Positions 768-62,869 of a DNA stretch of 64,000 nucleotides are shown piece by piece. A program made the position numbers and the translations under genes. Numbering within the stretch: position 1 is the stretch's first letter; each line of letters opens with the position of its first letter. Under the pieces are notes generated by a model. The model ran no database searches and had not been told where the DNA came from. It was given only the letters and a program-made list of their open reading frames with translations. This stretch comes from Dictyostelium discoideum (lineage: Eukaryota), in the NCBI GenBank assembly GCA_000004695.1, contig CM000150.2:4096001-4160000 (forward strand). The letters are read 5' to 3'.

Positions 768-818
<51 letters not shown>

Positions 819-1420: not shown

Positions 1421-1593
1421 TAATACTGGTTATTTTTATGGTCATTATAAATTCTTTGACAGTAATAGAGTTGAAGAATCATTCTTCCCAATTACTTATT
1501 CATCTTCAGGTAAAAGATCAAAGTGTTGTGATTATTTTTATTCTGATGATAGGATAATTAATAAATTTTAATTAAATATTGAAAGTATAAAAA

Positions 1594-1626
<33 letters not shown>

Positions 1627-2451: not shown

Positions 2452-2506
<55 letters not shown>

Positions 2507-5500: not shown

Positions 5501-6857
5501 TAAATTTTTTCCATCATCATATTATGTCAATATAAACTACCTTGTTGATGAAGAACCAATTATTACATCGACTGATAATATTTTTTCAACTGGTGGTAAT
5601 TTATTAATTTATGGTAAATCATTATCAAATACAAAACAAGTATCAATTTATTATTCTGAAACCAATGTACAAAGTACAATAGTTCAAGATGAAATATATG
5701 GATCAAGTGCAGTTTTAATCAATTCAATTTCGGAAACATCAAAACCATTTAAAATTCAAATAATTACAACTTCTGGTTTAAAATCAAATGAATATTGGGT
5801 AACTCCAATTTATTTTGAAACAACAACCCCAGTAATTCCAACTAATCCACCACAAAAATGTAGTGGTAATCCAGAATGTGGCGGTAAATCACAAGGTTAC
5901 TGTTCACCAAATGGTTGTATTTGTTTTTCACCTTGGATTGGTACAAGCTGTCAATCAAAAGTTATAGTTGTACCACCACCAATTGTAAATCCAAATGAAC
6001 CATCAACTAATATTATAACCAATTCAAGCAAAAGTGAAACATCATCGTTAGTTGGTGTAATTTCAATTGTTTCATTAAGAGAATTAGATCATAACAATAA
6101 AGTTATTAAAATTTTTAAATTTGAAAAATGGAATCAAACAAATTTAGAAAAGAATAAAAATATCTATTCAACAAGCATTAAATTTCAAGATAATAATAGT
6201 AATAACGATTGTTTTATAAATGTTGAAACTGAATGGTATGAAACATTAAGAAATATAACATTTGCAAATCAATTATTAGTAATGAATCCCTCAACATTAA
6301 AATATAATATAAACATTACAGCATATCCATTCCAATCGAAATTAAATACACTCCAATTAGTAATCAGAGCAAAACTAACTCAAAATGATTATAATGATGA
6401 TATATGCTCAAATCAAGAATTTGGTAAAACAGTTGCAGATAATTCAGATTTTATTCAATTATCAGTAAAAGATCATTCGTTATATGGTAGATTTGTTAAA
6501 AGAGGTATCGTAGATGGTAGAATTACATCAATTGGTAATGTTAAACTTAATGATTTAGATGATGAATCAAATTATTATACATCAGATTCATTCGTTGGTA
6601 TTGTAATTCCACAATACACAAATCTAATTCAACTAGATCCTGATTTTGGTTTATTGGTAGATAGTTCACCAACTGATTCAACATGTAAAAAAAGTGCATC
6701 ACTTTCAAAAGAAGCAAAGATTGGTATAATCGTAGGTTGTATTGGTTTTGTAATTGTTGTTGTAATAGTTGTAACTTTATGTGTAAAATATAAATATCAT
6801 ATTAGAAATTTAAAATCTGTTATTAAAATGAATCAAATCAAAGCGAATAAAAATTAA
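2007..6857 (+). CDS. Multi-exon gene of about 7 exons for a large secreted/type-I membrane protein. It has a signal peptide, beta-rich repeats (IPT/TIG-like, Tgr-like family guess), one EGF-like Cys-rich module, a single TM helix and a short basic cytoplasmic tail.
   Basis: Exon-sized ORFs lie in alternating frames at 2007-2430, 2633-2900, 3004-3310, about 3400-3719, about 3885-4200, 4287-4640 and 4718-6857. They are separated by A/T-only stretches with GT...AG ends. The N-terminus MKAYGGIVFFFLFIFF is signal-like. The last exon has CSGNPECGGKSQGYCSPNGCICFSPWIGTSCQSK (EGF-like), then IGIIVGCIGFVIVVVIVVTLCV (TM), then KYKYHIRNLK... It shares motifs (YTCT..LP.G.G...IL.SIYG; ...L.IYG...) with the genes at 47232-56208. 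Confidence 0.65.
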
Positions 6858-7220
6858 AATATTATTTCTATCTTTTTTTTTTTCAAATAAATAAATATTA
6901 TCTCCTTTTTTTTTTTTATTATTTTTATCTCTTTTTAGGTTTGAAAAAAAAAAAAAAAAAAATAATAATGTTATTTATCTTTTTTTTTTTCTTTTTTATC
7001 TCTTTTTTATCTCTTTTTTTATCTTATTTTTTTTAAAAAAAAAATAAATTTAACAATAAAAATAATTACTTTAAAAAACTTATTTTAACCAAAAAAAAAA
7101 AAAGAAAAAAATAAGAAAAAGATTTTTTGAGATAAAAATTTTTTTTTTTTTTTTTTGTGATGATTAATAATTTGAAGTTTTTTTTTTTATTTTTTTTTAT
7201 ATTTAATTCAAAAATTAATA

Positions 7221-8786
7221 ATGGATAGTAATAGTAATAATAATAATAATATTAATAATGATATTAAACCAAATGAAAAATTGTTTTTTTCAGTATGGAG
7301 AAATATTTTTTTAAAAAATAATATATTTGTTCAATTAAATTTATTAAAAAGTTATAAAAAAGTTTCTATACAAACTTTGGAAAATTTAAAAAATCAAAAA
7401 TATAAAAAATATATTGAAAAGATTGTTTATTATAGCGATGATAATATATTAGACGAAAATATTTTATTAGAATTCGATATTTTAAAAACTATTAAATTTA
7501 TGCATCAAGGGTTTGAATTGATTTCTCCATCAGTTTTACCAATTGGTTTAAAAAAGTTAATATTCCCAATAAAGAGTAACTCTTTAATTCATAATTTTAA
7601 AGATAATGAAACATGTAGTTTTTCATTGTTCCCAAGTTCAGTTACTGATGTTAGAAATGTTTATGCAAAGGATCCAATTATTTCAATTCCTTCAAATATT
7701 AAAAGAATTCATTTTAGGAGTATTTCTCAAAATGCATTGAATAAAAGTGATTTTAATAGTGGTGGTTTTGGTGGTGTTGGTGGAAATTCAATAACAGAAC
7801 TTGGATTTTATATTGATGAAAGTACAATTAAATTAAATTTTGGTATGATTCCATTTGGATTAATAAAAAGATTACATATGGAAACAATGTCATTAGATTT
7901 TAATAAATTACCAATATCATTAACACACTTGAAATTAGATATTAGAATGGAGATTGTAATAAATAATGTTTTGTATTTTTCATTTGGTAAACTTAAAAAA
8001 CTTGAATTAATTTCAAAAAATAAAATTGAAATTCATAATAATATGTTTCCTGAATCTCTCACTCATTTAAAAATGGGGTCACCATCTATAAGATTAGGTC
8101 AAAAATCACTACCATCAGGTTTATTATTTTTAATGGTTACAGATACTATCCAAGGTATGAATAATAATAATTGGTTACCCCTATCATTGAAAACATTAAT
8201 TGTAAAAGGCCATCCTAAAAGTGGTTGGTATGGTTACCAATTTAGTTCATTGATAATTCAACATGTTAATTTACCACCAAAACTTGTACATCTACAATTT
8301 GATGACAAAGGTTTTGGATATGGTGATAATCAAATACTTACACCTGGTTGCATCCCACGATCATTAACCTATTTAAATTTTGGTTCAAATTTTAATCAAG
8401 AAATTTACAAAGATGCACTTCCAAATTTAGTTGAAATCAATTTTGGTTCAAGATTTAATAGATATTTAGATCCAGGTGTACTTCCAATAAATTCATTGAA
8501 AAAATTAACTTTATCAACTGATTTCAATAAGAAACTTGAGATTGGTTCATTACCAGATTCAATAACTCATTTAACATTTGGTTATAATTATAATCAACCA
8601 ATAATATCATTACCATCCTCATTAACTTGCTTAGAATTAAATTGTCCAAATTATTCTCATAAAATTGATACTTCAAATTTATTCCCACCTTGTCTATCAA
8701 AATTAGTTTTATCAAAAAATTTTAAACAAAATGATTTAATTTCAAGAGATTGTTTTTATTCTATTGATAAAGTTTTAATTGAATAA
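7221..8786 (+). CDS. FNIP-repeat protein (Dictyostelium FNIP repeat family), single exon.
   Basis: There are repeated about 22-aa units with LP.SLTHL.FG..FNQ.I (LPISLTHLKLD, FPESLTHLKMG, IPRSLTYLNFGSNFNQEI, LPNLVEINFGSRFNRYL, LPDSITHLTFGYNYNQPI, LPSSLTCLELN). The N-terminus is Asn-rich. The ORF is uninterrupted at 521 aa. Confidence 0.85.
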   Translation: MDSNSNNNNNINNDIKPNEKLFFSVWRNIFLKNNIFVQLNLLKSYKKVSIQTLENLKNQKYKKYIEKIVYYSDDNILDENILLEFDILKTIKFMHQGFELISPSVLPIGLKKLIFPIKSNSLIHNFKDNETCSFSLFPSSVTDVRNVYAKDPIISIPSNIKRIHFRSISQNALNKSDFNSGGFGGVGGNSITELGFYIDESTIKLNFGMIPFGLIKRLHMETMSLDFNKLPISLTHLKLDIRMEIVINNVLYFSFGKLKKLELISKNKIEIHNNMFPESLTHLKMGSPSIRLGQKSLPSGLLFLMVTDTIQGMNNNNWLPLSLKTLIVKGHPKSGWYGYQFSSLIIQHVNLPPKLVHLQFDDKGFGYGDNQILTPGCIPRSLTYLNFGSNFNQEIYKDALPNLVEINFGSRFNRYLDPGVLPINSLKKLTLSTDFNKKLEIGSLPDSITHLTFGYNYNQPIISLPSSLTCLELNCPNYSHKIDTSNLFPPCLSKLVLSKNFKQNDLISRDCFYSIDKVLIE

Positions 8787-9354
8787 ATACAAATATAATA
8801 ATTTTAAATAATAAAAATCTTTTAATTTTGGGAATAAAAGGGGATGATTTTTTTTTTTAAAAAAATAAAAATAAATAAATATTCCCTCATTTTTCAAAAT
8901 AAAAAGACAATTACGAAATCTATAATAATTCATATTTAAAATAAATAGAATTAAATGAAAAAAATAAAAAAAAAGTTCTTTATTACAAGACAAAAAGTAA
9001 TAAAAAAAACTTTGTAAAGTTTTTTTTTTTTTTTTTGTTTTATCATACTTTTTTTTTTTTTTTTTTTTTTTAACCATTTTTCAATTTTTATTTATTTTAA
9101 TATTATAAAAAGTTGGTATTATTTTCTTTTTTTTTGAAACGATAAATATCTATATTTAAAAAGTCAACCGTTTGATATTTTGAAAAAAAAAAAAAAAAAT
9201 TAAAAAATTAAAAAATAAAAAAAAATTAAAAATAAAATATCTAAAAATACAAAGGAAAAAAAAAAAAAAAATAGATTAATTTCAAATAAAAAACATTAAA
9301 TTTCCAACTTTTTTCAATCACGCTCGATCATTTCCTTTTTTTTCTTCATCAAAT

Positions 9355-9420
9355 AATTTTAATTTTTTTAATTTTTTTAATTTTTTTAATTTTTTTAATT
9401 TTTTTAATTTTTTTTTTTTT
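9355..9420. repeat. Intergenic (AATTTTTTT)n minisatellite, about 7 units.
   Basis: ttaatttttttaatttttttaattttttt..., read directly from the sequence. Confidence 0.8.
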
Positions 9421-9624
9421 TTCAGACTTTATCCTTTCATTTTTGTGTGAGCCCTGCATATTTTTGTAACTGCTATCAAATTTTCAAATTATGCGTTGAA
9501 TTACCAAAAAAAATCTTTTTTTTTTTTTTTTTTTTTGACGTAAATATAAATAGTTTTTATTTTTAAACATTTCATTTTCCATAATTCATTAATAAAATAT
9601 ATTTATAAATAATTATAAAAACAA

Positions 9625-9654
<30 letters not shown>

Positions 9655-9658
<4 letters not shown>

Positions 9659-10522
9659 TTAAAGTCTTACCACTCATTTCTTTTATTTTAATCATATTAG
9701 CAGCTGTATGTACTATCATTGGTTTTTCAAGTATGTATTAATTTATTTGTCTTTATCTTTTTATTTTTAATTTTTTTTTTCTATTTTATTTTTTTTTTTT
9801 TTAATTTTTTTTTTTTTTTATTAATTTTTAAATCATTTTATTATTTAAGCTTATTGGTATCAAATAAAAATCGAGGGTGCTGATGGTGCAGTTATTGAAA
9901 CTTATTATAAATATAATAAAGTTAATGTTATTGTTTCAATTGATGGAGATGAAGTATCAGGAACAACTGGATATGATGAAGTAGATGGAGAATTCTCAGC
10001 TCAATTAAAATTCTATAAAGCTGCCTTAGCTATGGATATTTTAGCCTTTGTCAATTTATTCTTTTCAGCATGCTACTTGGGTTTTGCATTATTCAAAGGA
10101 ATTTCTCAAGCCAGTCAAACAAAATTTAAGAATTCATTAAATGGTGCAACTATATTTTTAATTATTGCTACATTTGTTGTATTAGGTTTACCAAAGGTAT
10201 TTTTTCAATAATTTTTTTATTTTTTTATTTTTTTTTTTATTCATTTCGTAAATTAACAATTCATTTCTATTTTTTTTAAAAGGCTCGTAGAGAGGATTGT
10301 GAAGATTATGCTAATGACAGTAGTTATAATTACTCTGGTAGCCAAGTTAAAGATATTTGTAGTATCGGAATTAATAAAAAATTCATTGGTAGTGAAACTG
10401 AAGTTGATGGTTCAAAATATTCATGGGGACCAACAACTGCTTGGATTGCCATTGTAATTGGTCTTGGTCTCACATTCTTTAACAATGTCTTTGTTTACAT
10501 TGCTCCAATTTTCAAAGACTAA
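9655..10522 (+). CDS. Small four-TM membrane protein in 3 exons (9655..9730, 9850..10196, 10283..10522), uncharacterised, with claudin/PMP22- or tetraspan-like topology.
   Basis: The ATG follows an A24 tract. Exon 1 encodes MVKVLPLISFILIILAAVCTIIGFS. The introns start GTATGT and GTATTT, end in AG, and are A/T-only. Phases are consistent (76+347+240 nt = 221 codons). The translation has four hydrophobic helices and two roughly 55-aa loops, the second loop carrying a Cys pair. The ORF track misses it because the exons lack internal ATG starts. Confidence 0.7.
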
Positions 10523-10602
10523 AGAATTTTTTTTAAAAAAAAAAAAAAAAAACAAAAAAAATAAATTAACAACTTGCAAAAATAAACAAATATGTTTATT
10601 AG

Positions 10603-10637
<35 letters not shown>

Positions 10638-10976
10638 ATTCTACATGTTTCTTTTGTTTATTTAATAATTTTTAATTTAAAATCTAACTAGGACTAATAA
10701 GTAGAACAAGAATCGATGATATATTATTTTACAATTTGCAAAATATATTTATTAGATTAAAATAATAAAAAATATATTTATTAGACAAAAAAAAAAAAAA
10801 TGAAAAAAAAAAAAATGAAAAAAAAAAAAATTTCTATATGTTTCTTATATTTATTTAATAATTTTATTATTTCAAATCCAACCAGAATCAATAAGTTGAA
10901 CCATAGTCGTGATAATTTATTTATTTTTTTTTTTTTTTTTTTTTTTTTTTATTTTTTATTTTTTTTTAAAAAATCC

Positions 10977-13690
10977 TTAATTAACCCAATCCAAATCATA
11001 TTTATATAATTTATTATTAGATAAAGATATTTTAAGGTGGTTTAATAAAATTGGATCGTTTTTAATGCTATTGATTTTGTTACTATTGTCATTATAAAAA
11101 TATTTTAGAATATGAATATTATTGTTTTTGATTGCATGAGTGATTGAGTAATTTGTAATTTTAAATTGATTTGGATAATAAGAGATAACCAAGTTACATA
11201 AATGAGTAATACCTAAAACAAATGCACTTATAAATATATTATTATTATCATTAATATACTGATTTTTTAGTTCTTCTTCATCGTCCTGTTGTTGTTGTTG
11301 AAGAGTATCTTCTTGAAAAATTATTTTAAATAAATTTTGATATTCACTTTGATTAAAAAGTTTTGATAATACATTAGACTGAACCTTTGATTTTTCAATA
11401 CTAATTAATTCATGTTCTTTAGTAGGATTATCAATTTCATCTATTTCAAATTGATGTAATAAATAATTATAAGTTTCTTTTAAAATTAATTTTTTAATAT
11501 CAGATGGTGTTGAAGGATTAATTAATTTTTTATAATTATCTTGATTTTTAATCTTTAAGAAATGCGATTGTAAGAATTCTAAAAATCTAACTTCAAATAG
11601 TTTTTTTGATTGATTAAAAACCATTGATTGAAATTTAAAAGGCTTTTTTACTCTTTCGAAATAATTCTCTAAAAAGAATTTTGATTCTAAATAACTATCA
11701 CAACTATTAACTAATTGAGGTGTTGAAGTAATAGTATTTAAAGATGAAATGGTGATTTCATAATTCTCTAAGATAAATTTAGAAATTTCAAAATTATTTT
11801 TAAATATTGATTCATCAAAAATTGCAGAATGAAATGCTGATTGGTAAAAATTAAATTCTATAAATCTTTGAATTTCATCTGTGTTCATTATTTTACAAGA
11901 TAAACTTATTACTTTTGGAGAGAAATCAAAAGAGTTTATTAAAACAACGGGTTTAATAAATAGATCTTCTTGTTGTTTGATTTTAGTTGTTGTTAAAGGT
12001 TGTTCAGTTGGAGGCATTAAAGGTAACTTTCTAATAGATTCATCTCTTAACTTACTTGCTGATAATAGTGAAAATGCTGGTACTTGATATAAATAAGTTT
12101 TCAAAGGGAATGTTGAACCTATTGGTACTTTTTCACGTAGACAATCAATGTGATCTTGAATGATTTCAAATTGATCAAAGAATAAATCTACTCTTTTAAT
12201 TAATAATAAATACTCTAATGTTAAATTCATAAATTCATGAAATTCATCAAGATAATGTGGGTATTCAATTATATTGATATAATTTAAAAATAATTGTGAA
12301 ATTAACATTTCAATAATTTTATCGAATGAATTGATATAATCACCACTACCACCATTATTATTTTTACCAAATATAAAATCAAATGTAAATTTATCAGATT
12401 CAAAATAATCAATAATGTCATAAACAGTTGGATCAATTTGATACTCGATTGAACAATTATAATATCTTTCTTTTGATTTTGAAAAAGGTTCAGTTATTCT
12501 TGGTATTGATAAAATGAATTTTATAAATTTGGTATCTCTAATTTGTAGGTAATAGAATGAATGATATAAAGTGTGTTTAATTGGTACTGAATTACTTTGA
12601 AATAGTGTATTAATTTCTATAATTTGTTCTTTTGTTACTTTCTTTGATTGAATTAATTTTTCAAAAATAAATTTAATTATAAGAATCAATGATTCAAATG
12701 ATTCGATTGGAATTGATTTTAATCGTTCAATTAATTTTATAATTATTGAATGTAATTCCTTTGCATTTGATTTTTCATCATGATAAATCGTTGTACTAAA
12801 AATATATCTTGGTGAATCATAAAATCTATCACCTTCACTATCACTAAAAGATATTACTTTATTTGAGTTGAATTGATTGGTAGTTTCCTCTTTTTTCTTA
12901 TCAAAAATTGTACTATTTATTATTAATTCAAAAATTGGTAAATCTAATGATAAAGTTGATTCTATTAATAGATTTTTTATAATATCAACTTCCATATTTT
13001 CAATATTTAATTTAATATCTGAATAAATTTTTGAATTTTTGATTTGATTAATAATTTCATTTTGAAATAATTTAAATGAACTTTTTGAAAAGTTTTTAAA
13101 ACCAATTTCATTAAAATATTCAATTAATTCTAATACTTTTGTTTCTGTTGTAGTTTTAGTTTCTGTTGTTGTTATTATTATTGTTTCTGTTGTTGCTGTA
13201 CTTGAAATTAATTTTTCACCATCTTCTTCAAATATTACTCCTAAAGAATTTAAATATTTCAAATTATCAATATTAAAATTGATTACTGAATTATACCAAA
13301 TGAAATTATATATGAGTTTCTTTAATTTCCCTGCACAACCACTACTACTGCCACTGCCATTGCTACTGCTGCCACTGCTACTGCTACTAGAATTTAATTT
13401 CGATTCACATAGATTTAAAAAGTATGATAATAATTCTACAGATTCAAATCTAAATGATAATATATTTTTTTTTTCAATTAAAAATGATTGAACAATCCAT
13501 TTATCATTATTTTCAGAAATCCAATCTAAAATTGATTTTTCTTTAATTATAATAATATCATTATCCTTTTTTTTTAAAATCTCAAATAAAATTGGATTCC
13601 ATTTACAATTCTCTAAATCTATTGGAAGTTGAGTTTTTAAACTACCATTCTCTTTTAATTCTAAAATTCTAAAAAATTCAATAAATTCAC

Positions 13691-13750
<60 letters not shown>

Positions 13751-14189
13751 CATTATTATCATTGTTGTGTAGTTCTTTGATTGTTTTTTTATATTTTAGT
13801 GTGTATTCTAAATAAAAGTCAATTATTTGTTTATAAATAATTTCATCAGTTTTATTTGATTTTTGAGAACCTTTTGAAGATAATGATTTTTTTATTATTG
13901 TTTTTATAAATAATTTTTGTAGTTTTTTAATTGACTTCTCATTGTTATTATTTTTATCATTATCGTAATTAAAAATTATTTTATCATTATCATTATCTAT
14001 ACAATAATTATTATATATTTTTAATACTAATAGAAGTTCACCGATTGTGCTATTTATTGAAAGGTCTGGTAGTTTTCCATTTTCTTTTAAAACTATATCT
14101 AAATCAATTAATTTATTCCTTAATTCTATATCTTTAAATAATAAAAACATTGAGTACCCAATTTTAGTTATATCAATTTCAATAATTTC

Positions 14190-14281
<92 letters not shown>

Positions 14282-14313
14282 TTGATTTAAATCTCTTTAA
14301 AGGCTGTTCCTCT

Positions 14314-14376
<63 letters not shown>

Positions 14377-15104
14377 TTAAAATCAAAAACTGAAAATAAG
14401 GAAATTAGTTGGTTTTCAGTAAATTCATTAATTTTAGATTTTAATGCCAAGTTGATTGAATTCTTTTTTATTCTTTGAATTTCCATATTATAGATAATAT
14501 TGTTTTTATCACTGTTGGTGTTGATGAGTTTTAATAAGATTTGAAGGATTTGTGGATCAGAATAAGTTGATATTGCATATTCTAAAGCTGATGGGTTAAC
14601 TTTTAAAGAGTATTCTTGATTTCCTAATATTTCCAATGCATCAACACAATTACATTTGGTAGCTACATGTATTAAATCTACGATTTCAAATTCTATTCTT
14701 TTATTTTTTAATAATAATATTAAAATCTCTTTTAATATACCATTGTTATTATTATTAGTTGTTGTTGATGCTGTTGTTGTGGTTATTGTTGTTGTTGATG
14801 TAGTATTAACGAATTCAATTCTTGATTTTGACAATGCTGAAAAAAATGTAGTGATTGAATTTTTACTAATTTTAATATAATCATTGGATTCCAATTTACA
14901 CTTTATTAATTGATAAAGGTTCTTTTTAATCATCCAATCTAAAGAATGAATATCTTTAAATTTTTTACGATTTTCTGGGTGAATGTTTTGTGGATCATCA
15001 TATTCAATCCATTCTAAACAATGAATTTGTTTAAAAATTAAACTAAGCAAATATTTATTATGAAATATTTGCCAAAATAATCCTTCAATATAATTATCAC
15101 CCAT
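10977..15104 (-). CDS. Large (1375 aa) uncharacterised protein, single exon, with poly-N/poly-S/poly-T tracts. Paralogue of the 16718..21547 gene.
   Basis: A 4.1-kb uninterrupted ORF in AT-rich DNA. The N-terminal about 90 aa, the central motif HTLYHSFYYLQIRDTKFIKFILS and the C-terminal YPNQFKITNYSITHAIKNNNIHILKYFY block are all shared with the neighbouring gene. I did not recognise a catalytic domain. Confidence 0.8.
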
Positions 15105-16142
15105 ATTGTGATCAAAAAAAAAAAAAAAAAAAAAAAAACCAAAAAAAAAAAAAAAAAAAAACCACTCAAAATTTTTCTTTTTTTTCCTTTTTTTTCTTTT
15201 TTTTTTTTTTTTTTGATATGATATTCATATAATATGTTATATTTAATAATTTAAATTACATTTTAAATTACATTTTAATAGATAAAATTTAATATTAAAT
15301 TACCATGATTTTTAAGTAATTCAGCAAAATTATATTTTAAGTATTATATCGAGCGATTAACCCTATTTTTTGAGCGTAATATGATATTTCAAGCGTTTAT
15401 CTATTATTTTATATGTTTATCATTGATTATAAAGCATATTTCACTTGCTAATGATATTTATTAATTTTGTTAAAATTAATATGGGAAAAAATCTTGGAAA
15501 AATTTTTTTTTTTTTTTTTGAATTAATTTTTAATTTTTTAATTTATTTTACTTATTTTTAATTATTTTTAATTTTTTTTTTTTTGAATTTAATTTAAAAA
15601 CACTCAATGGTTAACAGTTTTATACTAATATCAGCTATTTTTAAATAAATTAAAGGGGTTAGTTATTATTTTCTTTTAAACAAAATTAATATTTAAAATC
15701 AAAAAAAAAAGGAAAAATGGAAAAAAGTTTTTTTTTTTTTCAAGGACTTATTTACAATTTTTTCATCACCAAAAAAAAAATAATCAAAAAATAAAAAAAA
15801 AAAACAATTTTTGTGGCTTTCACCAAAAAAAAACAATAAACAAATAAAAAAAATCATTGATTATAATAAAATTATTATTAAAATATTTTATTATTTATTT
15901 TCATCTTTTATTGCTCCTTATAGGATATTACTCAACAATATAAATATGTTATATAATAAAAAAATAAATAAATTTTTTTGATTTTTTTTTTTTTTTAAAC
16001 ATAAGACGTTTTTTGAAAATGAAAAAAAAAAAAATTTTTTTTCAAATCTGTCAAAAAAAAAAAAAAACAAAATAAAATAAAATAAAAGAGGATAACCAGA
16101 ACAAAAAGAAGATGGACTAAAAATCAAAAGAAGATTCTGGTG

Positions 16143-16205
16143 ATGAAAGTGGTGGAGAAAAAAGTTGTAGTAAAGAAATCTAAAACACCAAACACATCAC
16201 CATCG

Positions 16206-16257
<52 letters not shown>

Positions 16258-16469
16258 CCAATGACAAATCATTTAATCTTTCAGATAAAAGAAAAATTTC
16301 ATATAGTAACTTTAAAGGTTTAGAACGTATTGATATCCGTGAATTTTTTGAAGATAAGTCTGGTGAATTAAAACCAAGTTCAAAAGGTATTTCATTAACA
16401 AGAGAACAACTTGTGGTTATATTAGAAAATGGTGATACAATTAAAGATTGGATAAAAGAAAGTAAATAA
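16143..16469 (+). CDS. Transcriptional coactivator PC4/Sub1 homologue (ssDNA-binding PC4 C-terminal domain) with an N-terminal Lys-rich segment and a poly-Ser tract.
   Basis: ISYSNFKGLERIDIREFFEDKSGELKPSSKGISLTREQLVVILENGDTIKDWI aligns with the PC4 core (FKGKVLIDIREYW...PG.KGISL..EQW..L). The poly-Ser is encoded by (TCA)n. The minus-strand ORF 16124..16507 is its antisense artefact (poly-Asp). Confidence 0.85.
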
Positions 16470-16717
16470 ACGATTTTCTTTAACAAATTACCACGATTTT
16501 GAAACAATTTATTAAATTTTAATCTTTTATGATAATAATTGGCAAAAAAAAGAATATAGATGATTTAGAACAAGTGGAAACATAATAATAATAAAAAAGA
16601 AAAGTTAATTAATATAAAATTTGCCTTATAAAAATTCTCGCGTTTAACAAAATGCCACAATTTGTTGTGTATTATTATAATTTTTTTTTTTTTTTTTTTA
16701 TGTTTATTACATTAATA

Positions 16718-19700
16718 TTAATTTAACCAATTTAAATCAAATTTATAATTATAATGATTGTTTAGTTCTTTTTTTAAATGATCCACTAAATCCTTGTTAC
16801 TTGAAATGAAGAAAGAGGAAGAATTTTCAAATCTATTATTATTATCAAGAATATGGTTTGGTAATATTGATATTATTTGACTCTTATTATAATTATTATT
16901 ATTATTATTATTATTAATATTATTATTAATATTATTATTTTTATAATAATATTTTAAAATATGAATATTATCTTTGTTGATAGCTTGAGTGATAGCATAA
17001 GTTGTTATTTTAAATTGATTTGGATAATATTTTAAAAATAGATTACACATTTGAATATTTCCTTTTATAAAGTATTTAATAAAAATATTATCATTTTGAT
17101 TTCTGTATTCTTTATCTGCATTTTCTTCATCATTATTAAATAACAATTGACCAAATAAAATTTTTAAACTATCTTGAATCTCTGATTGTTTATAAATTTG
17201 ATTTAATTTTCTATAATCTATATTTACAATTTCTTCTTGCTCTTCTTCATCATCATCTTCATCCACATCATCTTCTTCTACTTCATCTTCTTCATCTTCT
17301 TCATCATCTTCTTCTTCTTCTTCTTCATCTTCTTCTTCTTCATCTTCATCTTCTTCCTGTTCTTTCTGTTGTTTCTGTTCTTGTTGCTGTTCTTGCTGTT
17401 GCTGTTGTTGATGATTATGTTGTTGTTGTTTTTTTTGTTGATTTAATAAAATTAAAACCAATTCTTCTAATAATTGTTTTCTTTGAATTAAAGTTAAATT
17501 TTGATTTATAAATTCTCTATATTTATTTTCATTCTTTTGAAAATAATTATTTAATAATTCAAAGAATCTAAAAGTGAACAATTTCATTTCAAATTTATTT
17601 TTATCAAATTTGAATCTAATTGGATATTTAACTTTTTCAAAATAATTTTCAAGTAAAAACTTTGTTTCTAAATAATGGTCACGATTTAATTTTGGTGATT
17701 GGATTTGTTTACTTTGAATATCATCTTCATTATTATTATCATCATCATCATCGTCTGTAGCTGTTGTTGTCGTAGTAATTGGATCTAGTTGTGGTTGTGT
17801 AATTGATGATGATGTTGTTGTTGATGATGATGATGGTGGTACTGGTATTATTACCATTTTATTTAAATCATTCATTTCAATTTCATAATTATTTAAAATG
17901 AATTTTGAAATTTCAAAACAACCACTCAGAATTGAACAAAAGTAAACAATTTTTTGAAATGGAGTTTGATAGAAATTGAATTCAATTAACCTTTGAATAT
18001 TATCAACATCCATTAATCTACAAGCCAATTTAAGAACACTTGCAGAGAATTTGAATGAGTTTACCAAGAATTGTGGTTTAAAAGATTTCATTAAAGAGAT
18101 CATTGCATGATTAGTTGGTGGTGTTGTAGTTGCCTCTGTTGAAGAATTTAAATCTTGAGTTGTCATCCAATTTGAAGATAACATTGGTTTCGATAAAGGA
18201 ATCATTGGAAACTGTTTAGCATTACCACCACCAGCAGTGGTTTCATAGAGTTTACTAGTTAATAGAATGGTTGAAGCTGGTGATTTATGAATTGGTGTTG
18301 TGTGTGGAAATAATTCATTTTGATCGAAATGACCACTTTGATTCTCTTTATTTAAATAAACTTGAATGAATTGTAATTGTTTGAAAAATAAATCAATATT
18401 TTTAATCTCTAAACAATATTGTAAATAAACATTCATTAAAACTTGTAATACAATTCTATAAATACCACGTTTCTCTTCGAATAATATAATATAATTATGA
18501 ACTAATTGATATATAATTTTTTCAATTATATCATTTAATGAATTTGAAAATTCAAAATTATTATTATTATAATTATCTTTTAAAGTACGACCTAAAATAT
18601 AATTATAAGTGAATACATTTGTATCTAAATAATCCTTAATATCCGGTATACCATCGCCACCACCACCGCCACCAATATTACCAACACCAGAATTTGTGCC
18701 ATATTCAGTTGAACAATTATAATAATTTGAATAATCAGATTGAATAATAATTGAAATGAATGGATTTGTAAGTATACATTTTGATAATTTTGTTGACCTA
18801 ATTTGAAGATAATAGAATGAATGAAATAATGTATGATTTATTGAAATTGAAAGTTGATTTATTAATTTAAAATAAATCTTTTCAACCAAATCAATTGAGA
18901 TACCTTTAATTTGAATTAACTTTTCAAAGTAGTAATTGAAAATTTCATTATACGCTTGTTTAACTGATTTATTATTTGAAGCAACTAAATTGGATTGTCT
19001 ATATTTACAAACCAACTTTTCAATGATATCTATTATGGTATTACTATTGACTTTATTGATTTTATTTGTACAACCACCTATTCTATTCGCAATGAATTGA
19101 TCATAATGAAAGATGTTACGATCCTTATCGAAAATGTATCTACATTGTTTTAATCTACTGAATTCGAAATAATCATTTGCGAAAATCTGTTGTTCTACCA
19201 TATCATTATTTATCAATAATAAATGAATCATTACAATATCAGAGAACAACATTGACTCTATTAAAAAGAAGAATAAAGAATCTTTATTCATCAATGATAA
19301 ATCCAATCTTAATTCCAATACTTGATTAATTGGTATTGATTTCATTACAATCTCTTTAATAAATAATTCCAATGAATTATATGAAAAACATGAAAATCCA
19401 TATGAATTATAAAATTCAATAATTTTAATAATTGATTCTTCATTTAAAATTATATTACCACTATTCTCTTCACTACAACCACAGTTACCATCACTTGAAT
19501 TACTAATACCAATATTATTATTATTCTGATCTTGAATGAAATCATTTAAATGAAAAAATTGAATTTTTAAATTTATTGGTGATGAAATTAGTATCTTTAA
19601 ATTTTGAATATCACAATTCTTTATAGCCTCAACCCATGTATTTTTGTATATTTGTGCTCTAATTGAATTCAAACCAGCCATTTCAAATAGACTTGGTAAA

Positions 19701-20485
19701 ATTGTATCCTTTTCAGTATAAATCGCTAATTCCAATGACTGAATTTCAAATTTATTAAAACTATATACATTCTCACCAAGTATTATTTTCTTTAACCATG
19801 GCAATTTAATATTTGTAATCCAATCAATTGTCTCTCTATCTCTTATAATTATCTTCTCCTTAATAAATCCATTACCATCTACACCAATACTAATTAAATC
19901 AATTAAAATTGGATTCCAAATTAATTGATTCTCTTTAATTTCTTTAATAATTCTTTGGAATATATCTTTAAATGATAAATTATTACAATCACTACAACCA
20001 TTATTATTATTATTATTATTATTATAATCAACGATTTCACAATTTGTTTGAGTTGTTGTAAATTTAATAAATTGATGAAACACTTTTAAGTATCTAAAAA
20101 AATTAATAAATTCAATTTGATAATTATAATTAATTTGTTCTATAATTTGATTCTTATAAATTGATTCTAATTCAATCTCATTTATTAATTCTCTATATTT
20201 ATATATATATTCTTTATAGTATCTATTACTATTTGATTCAATTATTATTAATTTTTGTAATTCTTTTTCTTCATTTATTTCTTGTAATTTATTATTATCA
20301 CAATTATTATTATTATATTTTCTTATTATCACTAATAAATATTTCAATTCTTCAATTGATAATTTAATAAATGATTCTTCATCTTCTAAAAAATCAATAT
20401 TTGTTTTAATAACTAAATTTAATTCCATTAATTTACATTTAGTTTTTAAACATTTTAATGATTTAAATGTTTTAAAATCAATAAA

Positions 20486-20584
<99 letters not shown>

Positions 20585-20633
20585 ATTATTATTATTACTA
20601 TATCTAATTCTTTTTTGTGGTGGTTCTTCATTA

Positions 20634-20710
<77 letters not shown>

Positions 20711-21162
20711 GTTATTATTATTATTGTTATTATTACTATTATTATTATCTGGTAATATTAATACTTTATTATTATTATTATTATTTTTATTTTGAAAATT
20801 TAAACTATTAATTATATAATAAATCATTTCTTCTTTAAAATTATTATTTTTTAATGCAAATGAGAATGATTTAGTTTGTATAATTTCATCAATTATTAAA
20901 TTGAATTCTTTATATGTTTTATTAAAAGTTGATATTAAATATGAAACTATTGTTGGGTTTGAATTTAAAATTGCAAATTCAAAAGTTGATGGATAAACTA
21001 TAATAGAGTAAGGATCATTGGTAAGAATTTCCAATACACAAATACAATTACATTTCACTGCTAAAAATGTTAAATCTGTAATTTCAACTTCTGTTCTCTT
21101 CTTTTCTAATAACAAATGGATAATTTCTTTTAATATTTCTAAAGAAGAAGAGGATGAGGATG

Positions 21163-21260
<98 letters not shown>

Positions 21261-21547
21261 GAATTTATTGATAAATTTGAAATCGTTGTAAATAATATAT
21301 CTATTGAATCTTTATCAATTTGTATATAATCATTATTTGATTGTAATTTACATTTTATTAATGAAAATAACTTTTTATTTATCATCCAACTTAATGAGTG
21401 AATATCTTTAAACTTTAATCTATTATCTGCATGAATTTGTTTTGGGTCATCGTATTCTACCCATTCTGTATTTTGAATATGTTTTATAATACAACGTAAT
21501 AAAAATTTATTATGAAAAACTTTCCAAAAGAAATCTTCATTATTCAT
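16718..21547 (-). CDS. Large (1609 aa) uncharacterised protein, single exon. Paralogue of 10977..15104, with poly-S, very long poly-N, an acidic E/D run and a poly-Q/His segment.
   Basis: A 4.8-kb uninterrupted ORF. The conserved N-terminus FFWKVFHNKFLLRCIIKHIQNTEWVEYDDPKQIHADNRLKFKDIHSLSWMINKKLFSLIKCKL, the motif HTLFHSFYYLQIRSTKLSKCILT and the C-terminal YYPNQFKITTYAITQAINKDNIHILKYYY all match the paralogue. Confidence 0.8.
20470..20760. repeat. Near-pure (AAT/ATT)n microsatellite of about 290 bp, lying inside the CDS (poly-Asn). Similar coding tracts occur at 13690-13750, 14190-14370, 31935-32080, 35440-35700 and 36200-36420.
   Basis: Direct reading shows uninterrupted ATT repeats in one frame, with a few ATA/GTT interruptions. 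Confidence 0.9.
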
Positions 21548-23219: not shown

Positions 23220-23223
<4 letters not shown>

Positions 23224-26200
23224 TTATAGAAAGTACTGAGTGAATTATTGTTTTTTTTGAGATGTTTAGGAAGTTCTATTGCGTGAAGAGGTGAGTTCCA
23301 TTGTCTGCTAAATTGTAATAGCTTTAGCGAGATTAGTGAGTCTAATTTATTTTGTTCTTCTGGCCGTTGCTTTGATTTGATTCTTAATGTTTTGTTTATA
23401 ACCGCTTGTGTCCTGTCCCATGCAGCTCTTTGTGTTTTAATTAGTTCACGTATGACTTGTTGTCTGTGAATTATTATTTCTTTTTCATCGTGAATGAGTT
23501 TATTTCTTTTGTGCCAGATTTTATCGAATATAATAGCTATTAAATTGGCTACTAGTGCAATTTGTAGATGGTTTAAAATCTTCACATTCCAGGTGTGAGT
23601 GGTGTGTCCACACTTAGTTAGGGTGTAGTTGAAGATTTCTTGTGTGTTTTTGATGTGGGCTTTGCAGTTGAAGAATATATGTTCTGAGGTCTCATCTTCC
23701 CCACACTGTTGGCATGGCATGTTGTATATTTTTGGTAGTGCTTTCAGTGTGTATCTCCATAATAGATCTCTACCTTTCATGTTTATTATTTTTTTGATTT
23801 CTTTAAATGGAAGGTGTTTGCTATTAATTTTGGTCATTATTTCTTTTTGGCCAGGAGTTGGTATGAATTTGTTGTGTTCAGGAGATTGAGTTGTCATCAT
23901 ATCTTCGTATATTTTTTTTAATTTTGGGAGGTGTTCGTAGTGTGTTTGTTTATTTTGTGGAGTTTTTAATTGGGTCCATGCTTGCTTGCATTGCCAGTGT
24001 AGTTGTAGTTGATTTTGTTTTGTTGTTGTTTTGTTGTTGTTGTTGTTTTTGAGTTCCTCTTCCCACAGTTTTATATATGAACTAGGAGTGTTACTTACTC
24101 TTTGGTGGAGGTATCTTTCGAATAACCATGCTTTCTGTGCTAGTTCTCTTGTCTTCAGGTTCCATAAGTTTAGGCCACCATTGATATAGTTGTTTTGTCT
24201 TCTTTGTAGTGAAAGAGAGTTTTTAGATTTTGTGTTGAAAACGAATTTTACGATGTTATTTTCAATACTATTGTGTTGTGGTGTGGTGTTGATGTAAGTG
24301 TGGAACGTTAACTGAGATAGTGCATATGTTTTTGCCATTATGAGTCTGCCCATATAGGTTGATGAAGTTGAGTTCCATGTTACTAGTTTAGCTCTGATGT
24401 TGTCTGAGATTGTATTGATTTTGGATTTGATACCCTTATTGTTGAAGTCAAAGCCGAGGTACCTTTCGTTTGATTTTATGACGGTGTATAGCGTTCTGGT
24501 GTTCCATTTGAAAGTGATACACGAGCATTTGGTTTGGTTTATTTTTGCGCTGGTTGCTTGGCAAAACTTCTTGATCCATTCATTCATGAGGAAATGGTCC
24601 ATAAAGTTGTATGCTATTGTTGCTGTATCATCGGCGAACTGTAGTATTTTAATGGTTTCTTTGGTTACACCATTGATGCAGCGGTCATTTATTATAGTAG
24701 TTGCCATGCATTCAACCACTAATGCGAAGATAGTGGGAGAGATAGGATCACCTTGTTTGGTTCCTCTTTTTGATGTAAAGCTTTTAGATAATGAGTTATT
24801 GATGTACACTGATGTTTCTGATTCATTGAGTAAGTTCATTATTGTGAGGACCATTTTGAGTGGTAGTTTTAGATGTGCAAGAGTACGTAGAATGGCGTTA
24901 TGTGAGATTGAATCGAATGCTTTTTCAAAATCATAAAATGTTATGATTGGTTCCATATCCTCTTTTGTGTTAATCTCTCGTTTTATTATTTCTATTGTTG
25001 AGTTTAAGGTGATGATGTTATCGTGCAGTAGTCTTCTTGGTACGAATCCAGTTTGGAATGGTGAGATTATTTTGTTTAAGAACTTCAGGATCCTATTGTT
25101 GATTATTTTCGAATAGATTTTGTAATCGACATTTAGAAGTGTTATTGGTCTATAATTATCCAGGTTGTTTGGGTCTCCTTTGTTTTTATATATAGTAATC
25201 AATATCCCTTGTTTGAAGTCCTTTGGGATTGTTGTGTTCCAGAAGTGATTGTATAGTTTTGATATTATTGGTAGAATTTCATTAATGTGGTTTTTGTAAA
25301 ATGTTGGAAGGAGTCCATCTTTACCAGGTGCTTTTCCTTCTTGTATTTTTTCAATGCCTAGTCTGATTTCATATCCTTCTATTGGTTGATTAATTTCGTC
25401 CAATATCTTTTGATCAATCCTTTTATTGAATGTTTTTAGGAGTTCGTGGTGAGTGTCTTCGTTGCATTCTCTCTTCTGGTACAGGTTCTCGTAATATCTT
25501 CTTGCTACTTCGAGGATATCCTCGTGTTTTGTTACCAAACAATTGTTGCTTGGATCTAGAATTTGAGGGATTTCATTTGTCTTTCTTTGGACTTTTAACC
25601 TTCTGGTTAAGTATTTTGATGGTGTTTCTTTGTTGTTGATGTGGGTGTTGGTTTGGTTTGCTTGTTTTATTCTTACTTGTTCCTTTAGAATATTGTTGAT
25701 CTCTTCTTTAAGGAAGATTGCTCTTGAATCTTTGGCTGTTTCGAGTTTTTCTGCGAGTTCTTTTAGTTTGTTTTTGGTTTTATTGCTTTCTCTAATTTCT
25801 ATATTAATTGACAGTTTCTTTATTTCATCTTTTAGTTTCAACCATTGTTCGCAAATGTTTAATTTGTACCATTTGCTGGTGTTCTCTTCGAATTTTTTAT
25901 TGTAGTATTTAATTGTTTTATTAATTTTGAGGCTGGTTGAATTCATTTTGAGAGTTTCTAGGTTTTGTCTCCATAGTCTTTCTCCTTTCTTTTGTTGCTC
26001 GTATTCTGGTATTTTTAATTCAATGATTACCATGTTGTGATCAGATTTTAATTTGATTTCCTTAGTAGTAACTATTGGGTTTAGATGGAGTATCTTCTTT
26101 GAGACAAAGACCCTATCGATGGTTGATTTGTTTCTTGGAAATGTGATTCCATTCTTAATTTCTGTAAATTCGAATTCGTCGAAGATTGTTTTAATATATT

Positions 26201-26441
26201 TGTTAAGGTTATTATCCACTGAACAGTCTACATTGAAGTCTCCAGTTATAATATCGCTGTGTAGTATTTCTTCTGTGAGATTTTCCTTATACCATTCATG
26301 TCTTTCGTTTGACTTTGCTGGGGCATAAATGGTTGTGCATTTGATCTGTGTTTTTGCAATCATCCATTCGGAAGATATAATTCTTTCGTTTATTGTTTTT
26401 GTTGTTGTTTTTATTTGGGTGTTGATGATGATTTGTGACAC
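23220..26441 (-). CDS. TRE5-A ORF2: apurinic-like endonuclease, reverse transcriptase and a C-terminal zinc knuckle.
   Basis: 1073-aa ORF containing ...ITGDFNVDCS... (EEP endonuclease), RT blocks ...PGKDGLLPTFYK..., LQFADDTATIAYN (YxDD-type) and CQQCGEDETSEHIFFNCKAH. Confidence 0.85.
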
Positions 26442-26653
26442 CCCTTGTCCTGTTTTATCAATTGGTGCGTGGTGTGTTATTTTGTTTTTATATTGTTGAT
26501 TTATTGAGTAAATTTTATTTGTTTTTATATTTGTTTCAGTTAGAAGTGCTGCGTCCAGCTTGTTGTTGTCTAAAACGGTGTTTATTATGCTGGCAGATTG
26601 GATGGTGTTGGATCCTTGGACGTTCCAAACACCTATTCTTATTGTGTTTTTCT

Positions 26654-28110: not shown

Positions 28111-29175
28111 TCTTTTTTATATGAAAAATGAAATAATCAAAAAAAGAGATTGTTGTTGTTGTTTGTTTTTTTCGATCTGATTATTTTTTGCTTTTTTTTT
28201 GAAAATTTTGCTACGCAAAATTCTCAAAACGAAACAAATAATAAATTACAATAAAGTAAAAAGATGGCTTTTTAAAATAGTTTATTTATTTATTTATTTG
28301 TTTTTTAAGTCTTTTTTATATGAAAAATGAAATAATCAAAAAAAGAGATTGTTGTTGTTGTTTGTTTTTTTCGATCTGATTATTTTTTGCTTTTTTTTTG
28401 AAAATTTTGCTACGCAAAATTCTCAAAACGAAACAAATAATAAATTACAATAAAGTAAAAAGATGGCTTTTTAAAATAGTTTATTTATTTATTTATTTGT
28501 TTTTTAAGTCTTTTTTATATGAAAAATGAAATAATCAAAAAAAGAGATTGTTGTTGTTGTTTGTTTTTTTCGATCTGATTATTTTTTGCTTTTTTTTTGA
28601 AAATTTTGCTACGCAAAATTCTCAAAACGAAACAAATAATAAATTACAATAAAGTAAAAAGATGGCTTTTTAAAATAGTTTATTTATTTATTTATTTGTT
28701 TTTTAAGTCTTTTTTATATGAAAAATGAAATAATCAAAAAAAGAGATTGTTGTTGTTGTTTGTTTTTTTCGATCTGATTATTTTTTGCTTTTTTTTTGAA
28801 AATTTTGCTACGCAAAATTCTCAAAACGAAACAAATAATAAATTACAATAAAGTAAAAAGATGGCTTTTTAAAATAGTTTATTTATTTATTTATTTGTTT
28901 TTTAAGTCTTTTTTATATGAAAAATGAAATAATCAAAAAAAGAGATTGTTGTTGTTGTTTGTTTTTTTCGATCTGATTATTTTTTGCTTTTTTTTTGAAA
29001 ATTTTGCTACGCAAAATTCTCAAAACGAAACAAATAATAAATTACAATAAAGTAAAAAGATGGCTTTTTAAAATAGTTTATTTATTTATTTATTTGTTTT
29101 TTAAGTCTTTTTTATATGAAAAATGAAATAATCAAAAAAAGAGATTGTTGTTGTTGTTTGTTTTTTTCGATCTGA
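28108..29175 (-). repeat. Tandem array of the TRE5-A A-module: 5 complete 199-bp units plus a roughly 70-bp partial unit abutting the tRNA-proximal end.
   Basis: Unit starts on the plus strand (aagtcttttttatatg...) fall at 28108, 28307, 28506, 28705, 28904 and 29103, an exact 199-bp period. The same unit in reverse complement recurs at 62981-63658. Confidence 0.9.
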
Positions 29176-29225: not shown

Positions 29226-29298
29226 GCTCGATTAGCTCAGTCGGCAGAGCGTGGTGCTAATAACGCCACGGTCGCAGGTTCGATCCCTGCATCGAGCA
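29226..29298 (+). tRNA. tRNA-Ile, anticodon AAT.
   Basis: Manual cloverleaf: acceptor GCTCGAT/ATCGAGC, D-arm GCTC AGTCGGCA GAGC, anticodon stem TGGTG/CGCCA with loop CTAATAA, T-arm GCAGG TTCGATC CCTGC, discriminator A. Total 73 nt. Confidence 0.9.
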
Positions 29299-34683: not shown

Positions 34684-39261
<4,578 letters not shown>

Positions 39262-62836: not shown

Positions 62837-62869
62837 TGTGATTTAATTGTGGAAAAATTAAAAAAATTT

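Follow-up and report, generated by a model that had tools for sequence, protein, structure and literature searches.

What kind of protein is encoded by two giant minus-strand genes that lie on either side of a PC4 gene in Dictyostelium discoideum, and are these genes intact? Dictyostelium is a model for cell biology and social evolution, and uncharacterised lineage-specific helical-repeat families are common in its genome. We examined the two genes, here called A and B, in a 64,000-nucleotide stretch of contig CM000150.2 (the window).

Two intact giant paralogues flank a PC4 gene

Both intronless open reading frames were found in the ORF list exactly at the coordinates and lengths given by the initial annotation (Table 1). 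In an independent D. discoideum assembly (GCA_054883475.1) each is called as a single-exon gene, with products of 1375 and 1608 aa; gene A is identical in nucleotides between the window and that strain, and the length of a poly-N tract is the sole difference in gene B. Exact A and B proteins were absent from the clustered protein collection that was searched. At ~20% GC, the estimated chance of a 4.1-kb open frame is ~0.91^1375, or ~1e-56, so such a frame cannot be a chance product. Poly-N, poly-S, poly-Q/H and acidic tracts were seen in both proteins as described, and so were the motifs named earlier: HTLYHSFYYLQIR (A 844-856) and HTLFHSFYYLQIR (B 905-917) in the interior, and YPNQFKITNYSITHAI (A 1310-1325) and YPNQFKITTYAITQAI (B 1508-1523) near the C terminus.

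Table 1. Features of the two giant genes and the PC4 gene between them, with positions in the window.
Feature	Position	Strand	Residues	Content or basis
Gene A	10977..15104	-	1375 aa	Intronless ORF; Dictyostelium 'LFWKVF-cap' family; ORF list and other-strain gene call
Putative C-terminal ankyrin-like hairpins, A	11085..11249	-	1286-1340	Include YPNQFKITNYSITHAI..IHILKYFY
Putative ankyrin-like hairpins, A	11655..11918	-	1063-1150	DEIQRFIEF / FEISKFILENYEI / YLESKFFLENYFE
Conserved core, A	12105..12764	-	781-1000	HTLYHSFYYLQIR, FTF..I, L..L.I.R.DLF
Poly-N linker, A	14193..14375	-	244-304	Embeds PLKRFK motif
Putative ankyrin-like hairpins, A	14397..14738	-	123-236	AlphaFold2 helix pairs, hhalign of 40-240, paralogue Pfam
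N-terminal signature, A	14874..15086	-	7-77	E-x-LFWKVF-x-NKYL ... NR-x-KFKDI-x-SL-x-WMI ... LLK-x-KL
PC4 (transcriptional coactivator p15) gene	16143..16469	+	108 aa	Between A and B; Pfam PF02229
Gene B	16718..21547	-	1609 aa	Intronless ORF; tandem paralogue of A; ORF list and other-strain gene call
Conserved core, B	18305..19045	-	835-1081	Same core
Poly-N linker, B equivalent	20492-20791	-		With PQKRIR
N-terminal signature, B	21323..21538	-	4-75	Same family signature

Similarity between A and B had been described as restricted to islands. Instead, the two proteins are colinear over their whole length at about 37-41% identity. Across 1295 codons aligned without gaps, identity is 41%; BLAST segments after SEG filtering span 870-1000 residues at 35-37% identity. 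BLASTP E values are 7e-39 at the N terminus and 7e-19 at the C terminus. A and B are reciprocal best hits and each other's closest relative. The N-terminal signature is 59% identical between them (omega ~0.39). Nei-Gojobori omega values are ~0.2-0.4 for the N cap and the C-terminal blocks, against 0.75-1.1 for mid-protein; they are indicative only, with dS at ~1, saturated and distorted by extreme AT codon usage.

The mid-protein omega near 1, the large low-complexity expansions in both proteins and the presence of family fragments elsewhere in the genome could be read as signs that A, B or both are decaying or non-functional duplicates. We regard this as extremely unlikely: frames of 4.1 and 4.8 kb have stayed open at ~20% GC, every family motif is retained in both copies, A is unchanged in a second strain and the conserved blocks have low omega. 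Intact frames, motifs and second-strain identity thus led us to reject pseudogene status, which the initial annotation had named as an outcome that would overturn its view.

The gene between them was correctly assigned to PC4. It matches PF02229 at E = 4.9e-18 (64.8 bits against a gathering cut-off of 25; profile positions 1-51 of 52), its ATG is read at 16143, and GCA_054883475.1 has a 108-aa gene call for it. It does not belong to the family of A and B; its 3' end lies opposite the 3' end of B, and its start lies opposite the start of A, ~1 kb apart. A 108-aa gene convergent to a D. purpureum family member (P0054) mimics the B/PC4 arrangement, and we rejected it as a case of synteny after it gave no PC4 alignment at E <= 100.

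A Dictyostelium-only family that probably gains and loses copies

A and B are not an isolated pair. A family profile search of 1.84 billion proteins (1.84e9 representatives) returned 55 matches, 42 of them at E <= 1e-10; 52 of the 55, counted as representatives at 50% clustering, are of Dictyostelium type. Most of the matches carry both the N-terminal LFWKVFxNKYL...KFKDIxSLxWMI signature and a core bearing YYLxIRSxK and RxDLF. Every match traced to a species came from D. discoideum, D. cf. discoideum, D. dimigraforme or D. purpureum, and the family is therefore lineage-specific, as first proposed. We call it the 'LFWKVF-cap' family and define it by the N-terminal signature together with colinear core motifs, both of which A and B carry; against the full family HMM they score 723 and 728 bits. 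Members are 800-1600 residues long; D. discoideum strains contribute 11 or more distinct clusters, and D. purpureum 7 or more members. A giant-virus origin was considered and rejected, as viral contigs held no relative of the family.

Among the closest relatives are two D. discoideum hypothetical proteins, DDB_G0282641 (Q54S68) and DDB_G0282577 (Q54SA2), which are full-length colinear homologues of A (E = 7e-102 and 3e-14). They and ~50 further unnamed Dictyostelium proteins have the N-terminal signature, core motifs and C-terminal block in common with A and B. These homologues share 24-33% identity with A and map to other contigs or chromosomes; their shorter length, 1200-1314 aa, reflects the absence of the long poly-N, poly-S or poly-Q/E insertions. 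No protein of this set has a described function, and neither DDB_G identifier turned up in a full-text search of the literature.

The family most likely gains and loses copies fast. Other strains have paralogues with nearby locus tags, the region just upstream of DDB_G0282641 holds a C-terminal piece of a family member, and short fragments are numerous among the profile matches. Copies would be gained by local duplication and lost by decay. Rapid evolution, suggested by the initial annotation, is plausible from the sequences, since paralogues are 20-40% identical and those D. purpureum relatives that were examined are detected at E values of 2e-27 to 4e-5. One D. purpureum match (P0057) appeared to fuse a protein kinase, FNIP repeats and the family core. 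Its 4.6-kb gene model fails to translate to the P0057 protein, and the locus holds an independent 829-codon ORF starting MDDKLFFKVFRNKF; we therefore rejected the fusion as a merged gene model.

A capped protein, modelled as nearly all helical, whose core matches no known fold

We next describe the protein as four putative parts: an N-terminal signature; ankyrin-like hairpins near both ends and at 1063-1150; a helical core of ~220 residues with no recognisable relative; and disordered insertions (poly-N, poly-S, poly-T, poly-Q or acidic) that would occupy loops between modules. By motif pattern, the N-terminal signature is present in 35 of 65 sequences, even though this region is absent from the search profile, and an N-cap HMM scored 63.8 and 67.8 bits on A and B and nothing else in the window. 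The poly-N linker (A 244-304) falls in columns with family occupancy < 0.12, which marks it as a lineage-specific insertion.

Family occupancy and conservation peak in the core (A 781-1000). Across 40 members, the commonest residues recur at Y852 (39), L853 (37), S857 (36), R971 (35), D973 (35) and F975 (36), and A and B both carry the motifs YYLxIR(S)xKxxKYI, FTFxxI and LxxxLxIxRxDLF. The AlphaFold2 model of A 480-1375 is confident (pLDDT 83.6, pTM 0.79) and nearly all helical, with low-complexity tracts in low-confidence loops. The core itself is predicted to be helical save for a few short strands, mostly at pLDDT 90-98. It had no Pfam match, no match to a known fold in the fold search and no ankyrin signal in hhalign.

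Putative ankyrin-like hairpins lie outside the core

The initial annotation proposed that the conserved islands are degenerate ankyrin-type repeats. Ankyrin repeats are stacked units of ~33 residues, each a helix-turn-helix with a beta-hairpin or loop. Three segments of A resemble them in having short antiparallel helix pairs every 27-33 residues: the N-terminal model pairs helices 144-150/154-160 and 171-179/184-197, and the A 480-1375 model pairs 584-593/596-605 and 612-622/626-635 (segment 1063-1150) as well as 811-818/821-830 and 839-847/851-859 (segment 1286-1340). The second helix follows an 'hh..LLE.g'-type pattern, as in FEISKFILENY and IHILKYFY.

Sequence and fold comparisons gave weak matches to ankyrin proteins in the same segments. 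With hhalign, the 40-240 sub-alignment matched a designed ankyrin consensus at P = 0.023 (controls 0.7-0.95) and the 1280-1375 sub-alignment matched a canonical ankyrin segment at P = 0.0022; values for the two segments ranged over P = 0.0022-0.06, rising to 0.37-0.77 with 5-sequence profiles. The family profile also retrieved three canonical ankyrin proteins (E = 9e-16, 1e-13 and 9e-5, each the sum of 10-11 individually non-significant stretches) at profile positions ~711-790, which map approximately to A 1063-1150. Among 40 members, Ank_2 was matched in 4 (best E = 0.0037; top listed score 17.4 bits against a cut-off of 27.3) and Ank_3 in 4 (best E = 0.06), and these sub-threshold paralogue matches fall in the N-terminal hairpin region. 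None of the 40 reached threshold for Ank, Ank_2, Ank_3, Ank_4 or Ank_5, and A and B had no Pfam ankyrin match at E <= 1 or <= 10. A Foldseek search with the N-terminal model, whose pLDDT is 67, returned only non-significant helical-repeat matches.

The proposal thus survives in part. Weak signals from several directions converge on about A 53-236, 1063-1150 and 1286-1340, none above a family threshold; the C-terminal block falls within one of these segments, whereas the core, with its HT..FYYLQIR motif, shows no ankyrin signal. From sequence and model we tentatively describe the three segments as ankyrin-like hairpins. The family differs from ankyrin proteins in having no TPLH motif, and most of the protein, including the core, 305-780 and 1150-1280, is unlike ankyrin, with several 20-30-residue helices. 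The likeness might be convergent or coincidental, the proteins forming a separate alpha-solenoid kind unrelated to ankyrin repeats. This is possible but doubtful, as four independent methods favour ankyrin over TPR, armadillo or PPR and short helix pairs spaced 27-33 residues apart suit ankyrin. Generic alpha-solenoid scaffolds (karyopherins, HEAT, armadillo and TPR proteins) are among the closest known systems.

Scaffolds or adaptors as the probable role

Pfam and PDB sequence profiles gave no match to a catalytic domain in A or B, in line with the first reading of the sequence. The core could still be a new all-helical domain that acts as an enzyme or binds a ligand, with the remainder regulatory: nearly invariant polar and aromatic residues are grouped in YYLxIRSxK and RxDLF, the region has the top model confidence, and it has neither ankyrin signal nor fold match. 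We give this idea little weight. A itself has D at position 857, where 36 of 40 members have S; sequence and fold searches turned up no likeness to a catalytic family; and the conserved positions of the core are for the most part hydrophobic (L, I, F, Y), which would suit a structural core.

A second alternative draws on the F-box, an N-terminal motif of ~40 residues with the pattern LPxE...L..L...V.K.W. A and B might be substrate receptors of cullin-type ubiquitin ligases; the LFWKVF-x-NKYL cap would then dock in the manner of a cryptic F-box or through an analogous motif, with the variable helical body selecting substrates. The architecture fits, with a conserved N-terminal cap, a variable repeat body and a lineage-expanded family, and PMC9485057 reports that Dictyostelium encodes numerous F-box proteins which are divergent and difficult to detect and which carry ankyrin or FNIP/LRR receptor domains. 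Yet the F-box is missing from the Pfam families matched by at least 2 of 40 members at E <= 1, and hhalign of the cap against an alignment of F-box sequences gave P = 0.54 over one aligned column. The cap also lacks the LPxE...L motif of the F-box lists in PMC9485057, whose supplement of Skp1 interactors and candidates contains neither DDB_G0282641 nor DDB_G0282577, nor FWKV/LFWK, and the N-terminal model had no Skp2-like Foldseek match. With Pfam, hhalign, motif reading and the supplement all against it, we rejected an F-box, and the receptor role as a whole seems improbable.

Our preferred reading, held with moderate confidence, is that A and B are intact tandem duplicates in a Dictyostelium-only multigene family and are most likely non-enzymatic, acting as scaffolds or adaptors for protein-protein interaction; protein binding is the presumed role of the family as it is of ankyrin proteins. 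The conserved N-terminal cap and core would supply a function or partner that all members have in common, and the specificity of each paralogue would come from its fast-changing helical surfaces and linkers. Nothing in the family suggests an unexpected mechanism. A bolder version of the scaffold or adaptor reading, which we consider unlikely, holds that the core with YYLxIRSxK and RxDLF is a new helical domain, that the cap is a genus-specific docking element and that the 40-plus rapidly diversifying members form a variable, Dictyostelium-specific adaptor set. Such a set would be functionally akin to F-box/BTB receptor families or to innate-immunity/self-recognition repertoires, with the tandem pair A/B as one of its recent births.

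The family comprises ~fifty large Dictyostelium proteins with no Pfam model or solved structural relative, and our search found no publication on it. Its signature motifs, module map and confident all-helical model offer an annotation handle for 'hypothetical proteins', and the members are a candidate set for work on lineage-specific, fast-turnover gene repertoires.

An FNIP neighbour of A

The window also holds, at 7221-8786, a member of the FNIP-repeat (LRR-like) proteins of Dictyostelium and Mimivirus, likewise a Dictyostelium-expanded repeat family. Its N terminus, KLFFSVWRNIFLKNNIF, resembles the LFWKVFxNKYL cap by eye. A cap common to A, B and this neighbour was rejected, the N-cap HMM giving E > 10 on the FNIP protein. 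The bodies are unrelated: FNIP proteins are beta-rich and LRR-like, whereas the A/B family is all-helical.

A and B are colinear single-exon paralogues

The initial annotation had placed two giant minus-strand genes, A and B, on either side of a conserved PC4 gene. All three hold: A and B match the ORF list exactly in position and length, and the gene between them carries the PC4 domain in Pfam. In a second D. discoideum strain (GCA_054883475.1), whose contig JBTAPE010000039.1 is 99.7% identical to window 1-18805, the gene calls give A and B one exon each and lengths of 1375 and 1608 aa. A has the same nucleotides there, and B differs solely in the length of a poly-N run (one N fewer). The window, D. 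discoideum nuclear DNA, has ~20% GC and long poly-N coding tracts; antisense ORFs over the low-complexity tracts of A, B and the PC4 gene encode little but poly-L, poly-D and poly-E, which marks them as repeat by-products rather than genes.

All the motifs and low-complexity tracts first quoted were found in A and B. Their similarity, by contrast, is not restricted to islands, as had been thought: BLASTP matches the two (E = 7e-39 and 7e-19), and a global alignment is colinear from first to last residue at 41% identity (1295 ungapped codons). The N-terminal cap (A 7-77, B 4-75) and blocks 1050-1150 and 1285-1375 (A numbering) reach 53-59% identity, against 29-37% for the middle blocks, 1150-1280 and the core (A 781-1000). 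In the proposed dN/dS comparison, Nei-Gojobori counts gave a dN of 0.54 and a dS of ~1 that is saturated and distorted by AT-biased codon usage; omega is 0.75-1.1 in the middle of the proteins and ~0.2-0.4 in the cap and the C-terminal blocks. Mosaic constraint is all that can be read from these values. A family member in D. purpureum adjoins a 108-aa gene that was considered as a marker of synteny; it is not PC4, so no synteny was established.

Features of the 64-kb window (positions in nucleotides)
Feature	Position	Strand	Detail
More distant relative of 581-aa pair	4776-6857		DUF7035, DUF7034, ComC_SSD
FNIP-repeat protein gene	7221-8786	+	2 kb from A
A	10977-15104	-	1375 aa
Antisense ORF	14047-14373	+	100-130 aa; over A/B poly-N and poly-S tracts
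Antisense ORF	16124-16507	-	100-130 aa; over PC4 poly-S tract
PC4 gene	16143-16469	+	108 aa; PF02229, E = 4.9e-18; between A and B
B	16718-21547	-	1609 aa
Antisense ORF	21018-21329	+	100-130 aa; over A/B poly-N and poly-S tracts
Non-LTR retrotransposon	23220-27988	-	Adjoins tRNA-Ile gene
Its RT ORF	23220-26441	-	RVT_1, E = 3e-33
Its 444-aa ORF	26654-27988	-	
Tandem repeats	28281-29061		Four copies, ~199 bp unit, after retrotransposon
tRNA-Ile	29226-29298	+	
MFS_1_like transporter	29800-31359		
1390-aa ORF	35089-39261	-	Mostly poly-Q, poly-N, (TP)n tracts
Arrestin-N/C + SAM-domain protein	40512-42233	+	
581-aa gene, tandem	49430-51175	+	DUF7035, DUF7034, CBM49
581-aa gene, tandem	54463-56208	+	Same domains, near-identical Pfam scores
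C2 + PATROL1-like TPR protein	57563-60940	+	
tRNA-Lys	62869-62943	-	Adjoins second partial retrotransposon copy
Second partial retrotransposon copy	63096-64000		199-bp repeats and start of 444-aa ORF region match at 97-99%

A and B belong to a Dictyostelium family

Even with its performance reduced by poly-N words, the first homology search brought up full-length relatives from other parts of the D. discoideum genome: DDB_G0282641 (1314 aa) and DDB_G0282577 (1205/1209 aa). A HMMER profile of 998 positions, built on the C-terminal portions of five members and run against 1.84 billion representative proteins, matched 55 at E ≤ 1e-3, 42 of them at E ≤ 1e-10. Traced family matches came without exception from D. 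discoideum strains, D. cf. discoideum, D. dimigraforme and D. purpureum; those not traced are likewise I/L/N/K-rich. Most near-full-length matches start with E-x-LFWKVF-x-NKYL ... NR-x-KFKDI-x-SL-x-WMI ... LLK-x-KL, although the N-terminus was absent from the profile. At a 50% identity cut, the family forms at least 11 separate clusters in D. discoideum strains, and it has at least 7 members in D. purpureum. A and B are reciprocal best matches, which fits local duplication; we found no further members in the window and no relatives in viral contigs. Word-index searches (masked alignment; N-terminal domain) missed even known paralogues, so their empty results mean little for proteins of such composition. 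The clustered protein collection does not contain A or B in exact form, though A and B-minus-one-N are called in the second strain.

Just upstream of DDB_G0282641, a 133-codon ORF (locus L001, 9046-9444, plus strand) matches only the last ~85 profile positions (E = 2e-21) and looks like what is left of a partial tandem duplication. Together with paralogues bearing nearby locus tags in other strains and many short fragments among the profile matches, it points to copy gain and loss. This ORF is overlapped by a 95-aa gene that the assembly calls at L001 8788-9512, and the untraced 95-aa match P0042 is near-identical in sequence.

Two apparent links to FNIP proteins were rejected. The N-terminus of the FNIP neighbour of A (KLFFSVWRNIFLKNNIF) resembles the family cap by eye, but the cap HMM does not match the protein. 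In D. purpureum, an annotated 937-aa protein (P0057; kinase, FNIP and family core over 4.6 kb, GL870953.1 locus L005, 3001-7627) is not translatable from the locus; its family part is an independent ORF at 5138-7624 with its own start codon and N-terminal cap, and the public model has probably fused two genes.

Both genes are public 'hypothetical proteins', and a literature search found no paper for either DDB_G0282641 or DDB_G0282577. Without a Pfam model or structural relative either, the family appears undescribed. Lineage-specific helical-repeat families of this kind are common in Dictyostelium; the useful product is the definition of this one and a confident model, and a surprising mechanism did not emerge.

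A conserved helical core lacks a recognisable catalytic domain

AlphaFold2 predicts A 480-1375, from a 51-sequence family alignment, to be almost wholly helical (mean pLDDT 83.6, pTM 0.79), with S-rich, T-rich and P-rich tracts as low-confidence loops; the N-terminal 236 residues, modelled from five sequences only, are all-helical and less confident (pLDDT 67). Conservation has two maxima, the cap and the ~220-residue core, and in the core the model is also at its most confident (pLDDT mostly 90-98). Core motifs are YYLxIRSxKxxKYI, FTFxxI and LxxxLxIxRxDLF, and of 40 members, 39 keep Y852, 37 keep L853, 36 keep S857, 36 keep F975, 35 keep R971 and 35 keep D973. Such conservation might be that of a new enzyme core, a reading we consider improbable: in agreement with the initial annotation, neither Pfam nor PDB-sequence profiles reveal a known catalytic domain. 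A matches nothing in Pfam-A at E ≤ 10, B gives only compositional matches on acidic and serine tracts, the isolated cores have no match, and family profiles found nothing among PDB sequences.

Three segments weakly resemble degenerate ankyrin hairpins

Degenerate ankyrin-type repeats had been suggested from the sequence, and for three segments weak independent lines agree. When 40 members were scanned, no Pfam family but Ank_2 and Ank_3 recurred in more than two (4 members each, best E = 0.0037), with the matches located in the N-terminal and C-terminal parts. The sole non-Dictyostelium proteins that the profile retrieved from the 1.84 billion were three canonical freshwater-mussel ankyrin-repeat proteins (E = 9e-16, 1e-13 and 9e-5), each placing 10-11 stretches, none individually significant (best i-E = 49), on one profile segment mapping approximately to A 1063-1150, in the expected register (FEISKFLLENYEI opposite QLEMTQYLVEKYPDMI). 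When 40-sequence sub-alignments were compared with consensus helical repeats, hhalign gave P = 0.023 for 40-240 against designed ankyrin and P = 0.0022 for 1280-1375 against a mussel ankyrin segment; P was low for ankyrin alone, with TPR, armadillo, PPR and reversed controls at 0.2-0.97. In these segments the models have helices of 7-14 residues in pairs that recur every 27-33 residues, and we read the three segments as probable ankyrin-like hairpins in a very degenerate form.

The suggestion does not extend to the whole protein. Neither A nor B has a Pfam ankyrin match, five-sequence profiles were not significant against the designed ankyrin consensus, a TPLH-type signature is absent, Foldseek returned no ankyrin match, and hhalign gave no ankyrin signal at all in the core, 305-780 or 1150-1280. 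By any curated threshold these are not ankyrin family members, and their defining core is something other than ankyrin. That the proteins are a non-ankyrin solenoid we consider less likely than not, given the TPR, armadillo and PPR controls.

A scaffold or adaptor role is tentatively favoured

Large and helical, with no recognisable catalytic domain, the proteins combine ankyrin-like hairpins, disordered linkers, a conserved cap and core, and local duplication and decay. On these grounds we lean slightly towards non-enzymatic protein-binding scaffolds or adaptors, in which cap and core would supply a function common to the paralogues and the diverging surfaces binding particular to each. An F-box-type receptor also comes to mind, since the N-terminal cap is conserved and the repeat body behind it variable. 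The families that match at least 2 of the 40 members include no F-box family, hhalign against an F-box alignment gave P = 0.54, and a cryptic E3 receptor seems quite unlikely. DDB_G0282641, DDB_G0282577 and the cap strings are absent from the supplement of a Dictyostelium Skp1-interactome study (PMC9485057).

Within a poly-N linker, between two poly-N runs, A keeps PLKRFK (residues 268-273, window 14289-14306) and B PQKRIR (residues 310-315, window 20603-20620). Both match the classical monopartite nuclear-localisation consensus, a hint only. DDB_G0282641, unlike A and B, lacks this P-x-K-R-x-K/R motif and has an acidic tract instead.

Other features of the window

The tandem 581-aa genes look like a recent local duplication. 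Pfam found nothing on the 1390-aa ORF as it stands; its C-terminal end (...LILMDLFMP) resembles the opening of a response-regulator receiver domain, and the frame then breaks down, probably where an intron lies. Window 23284-26416, most of the RT ORF, is missing from GCA_054883475.1, and the non-LTR retrotransposon is thus structurally polymorphic between strains.
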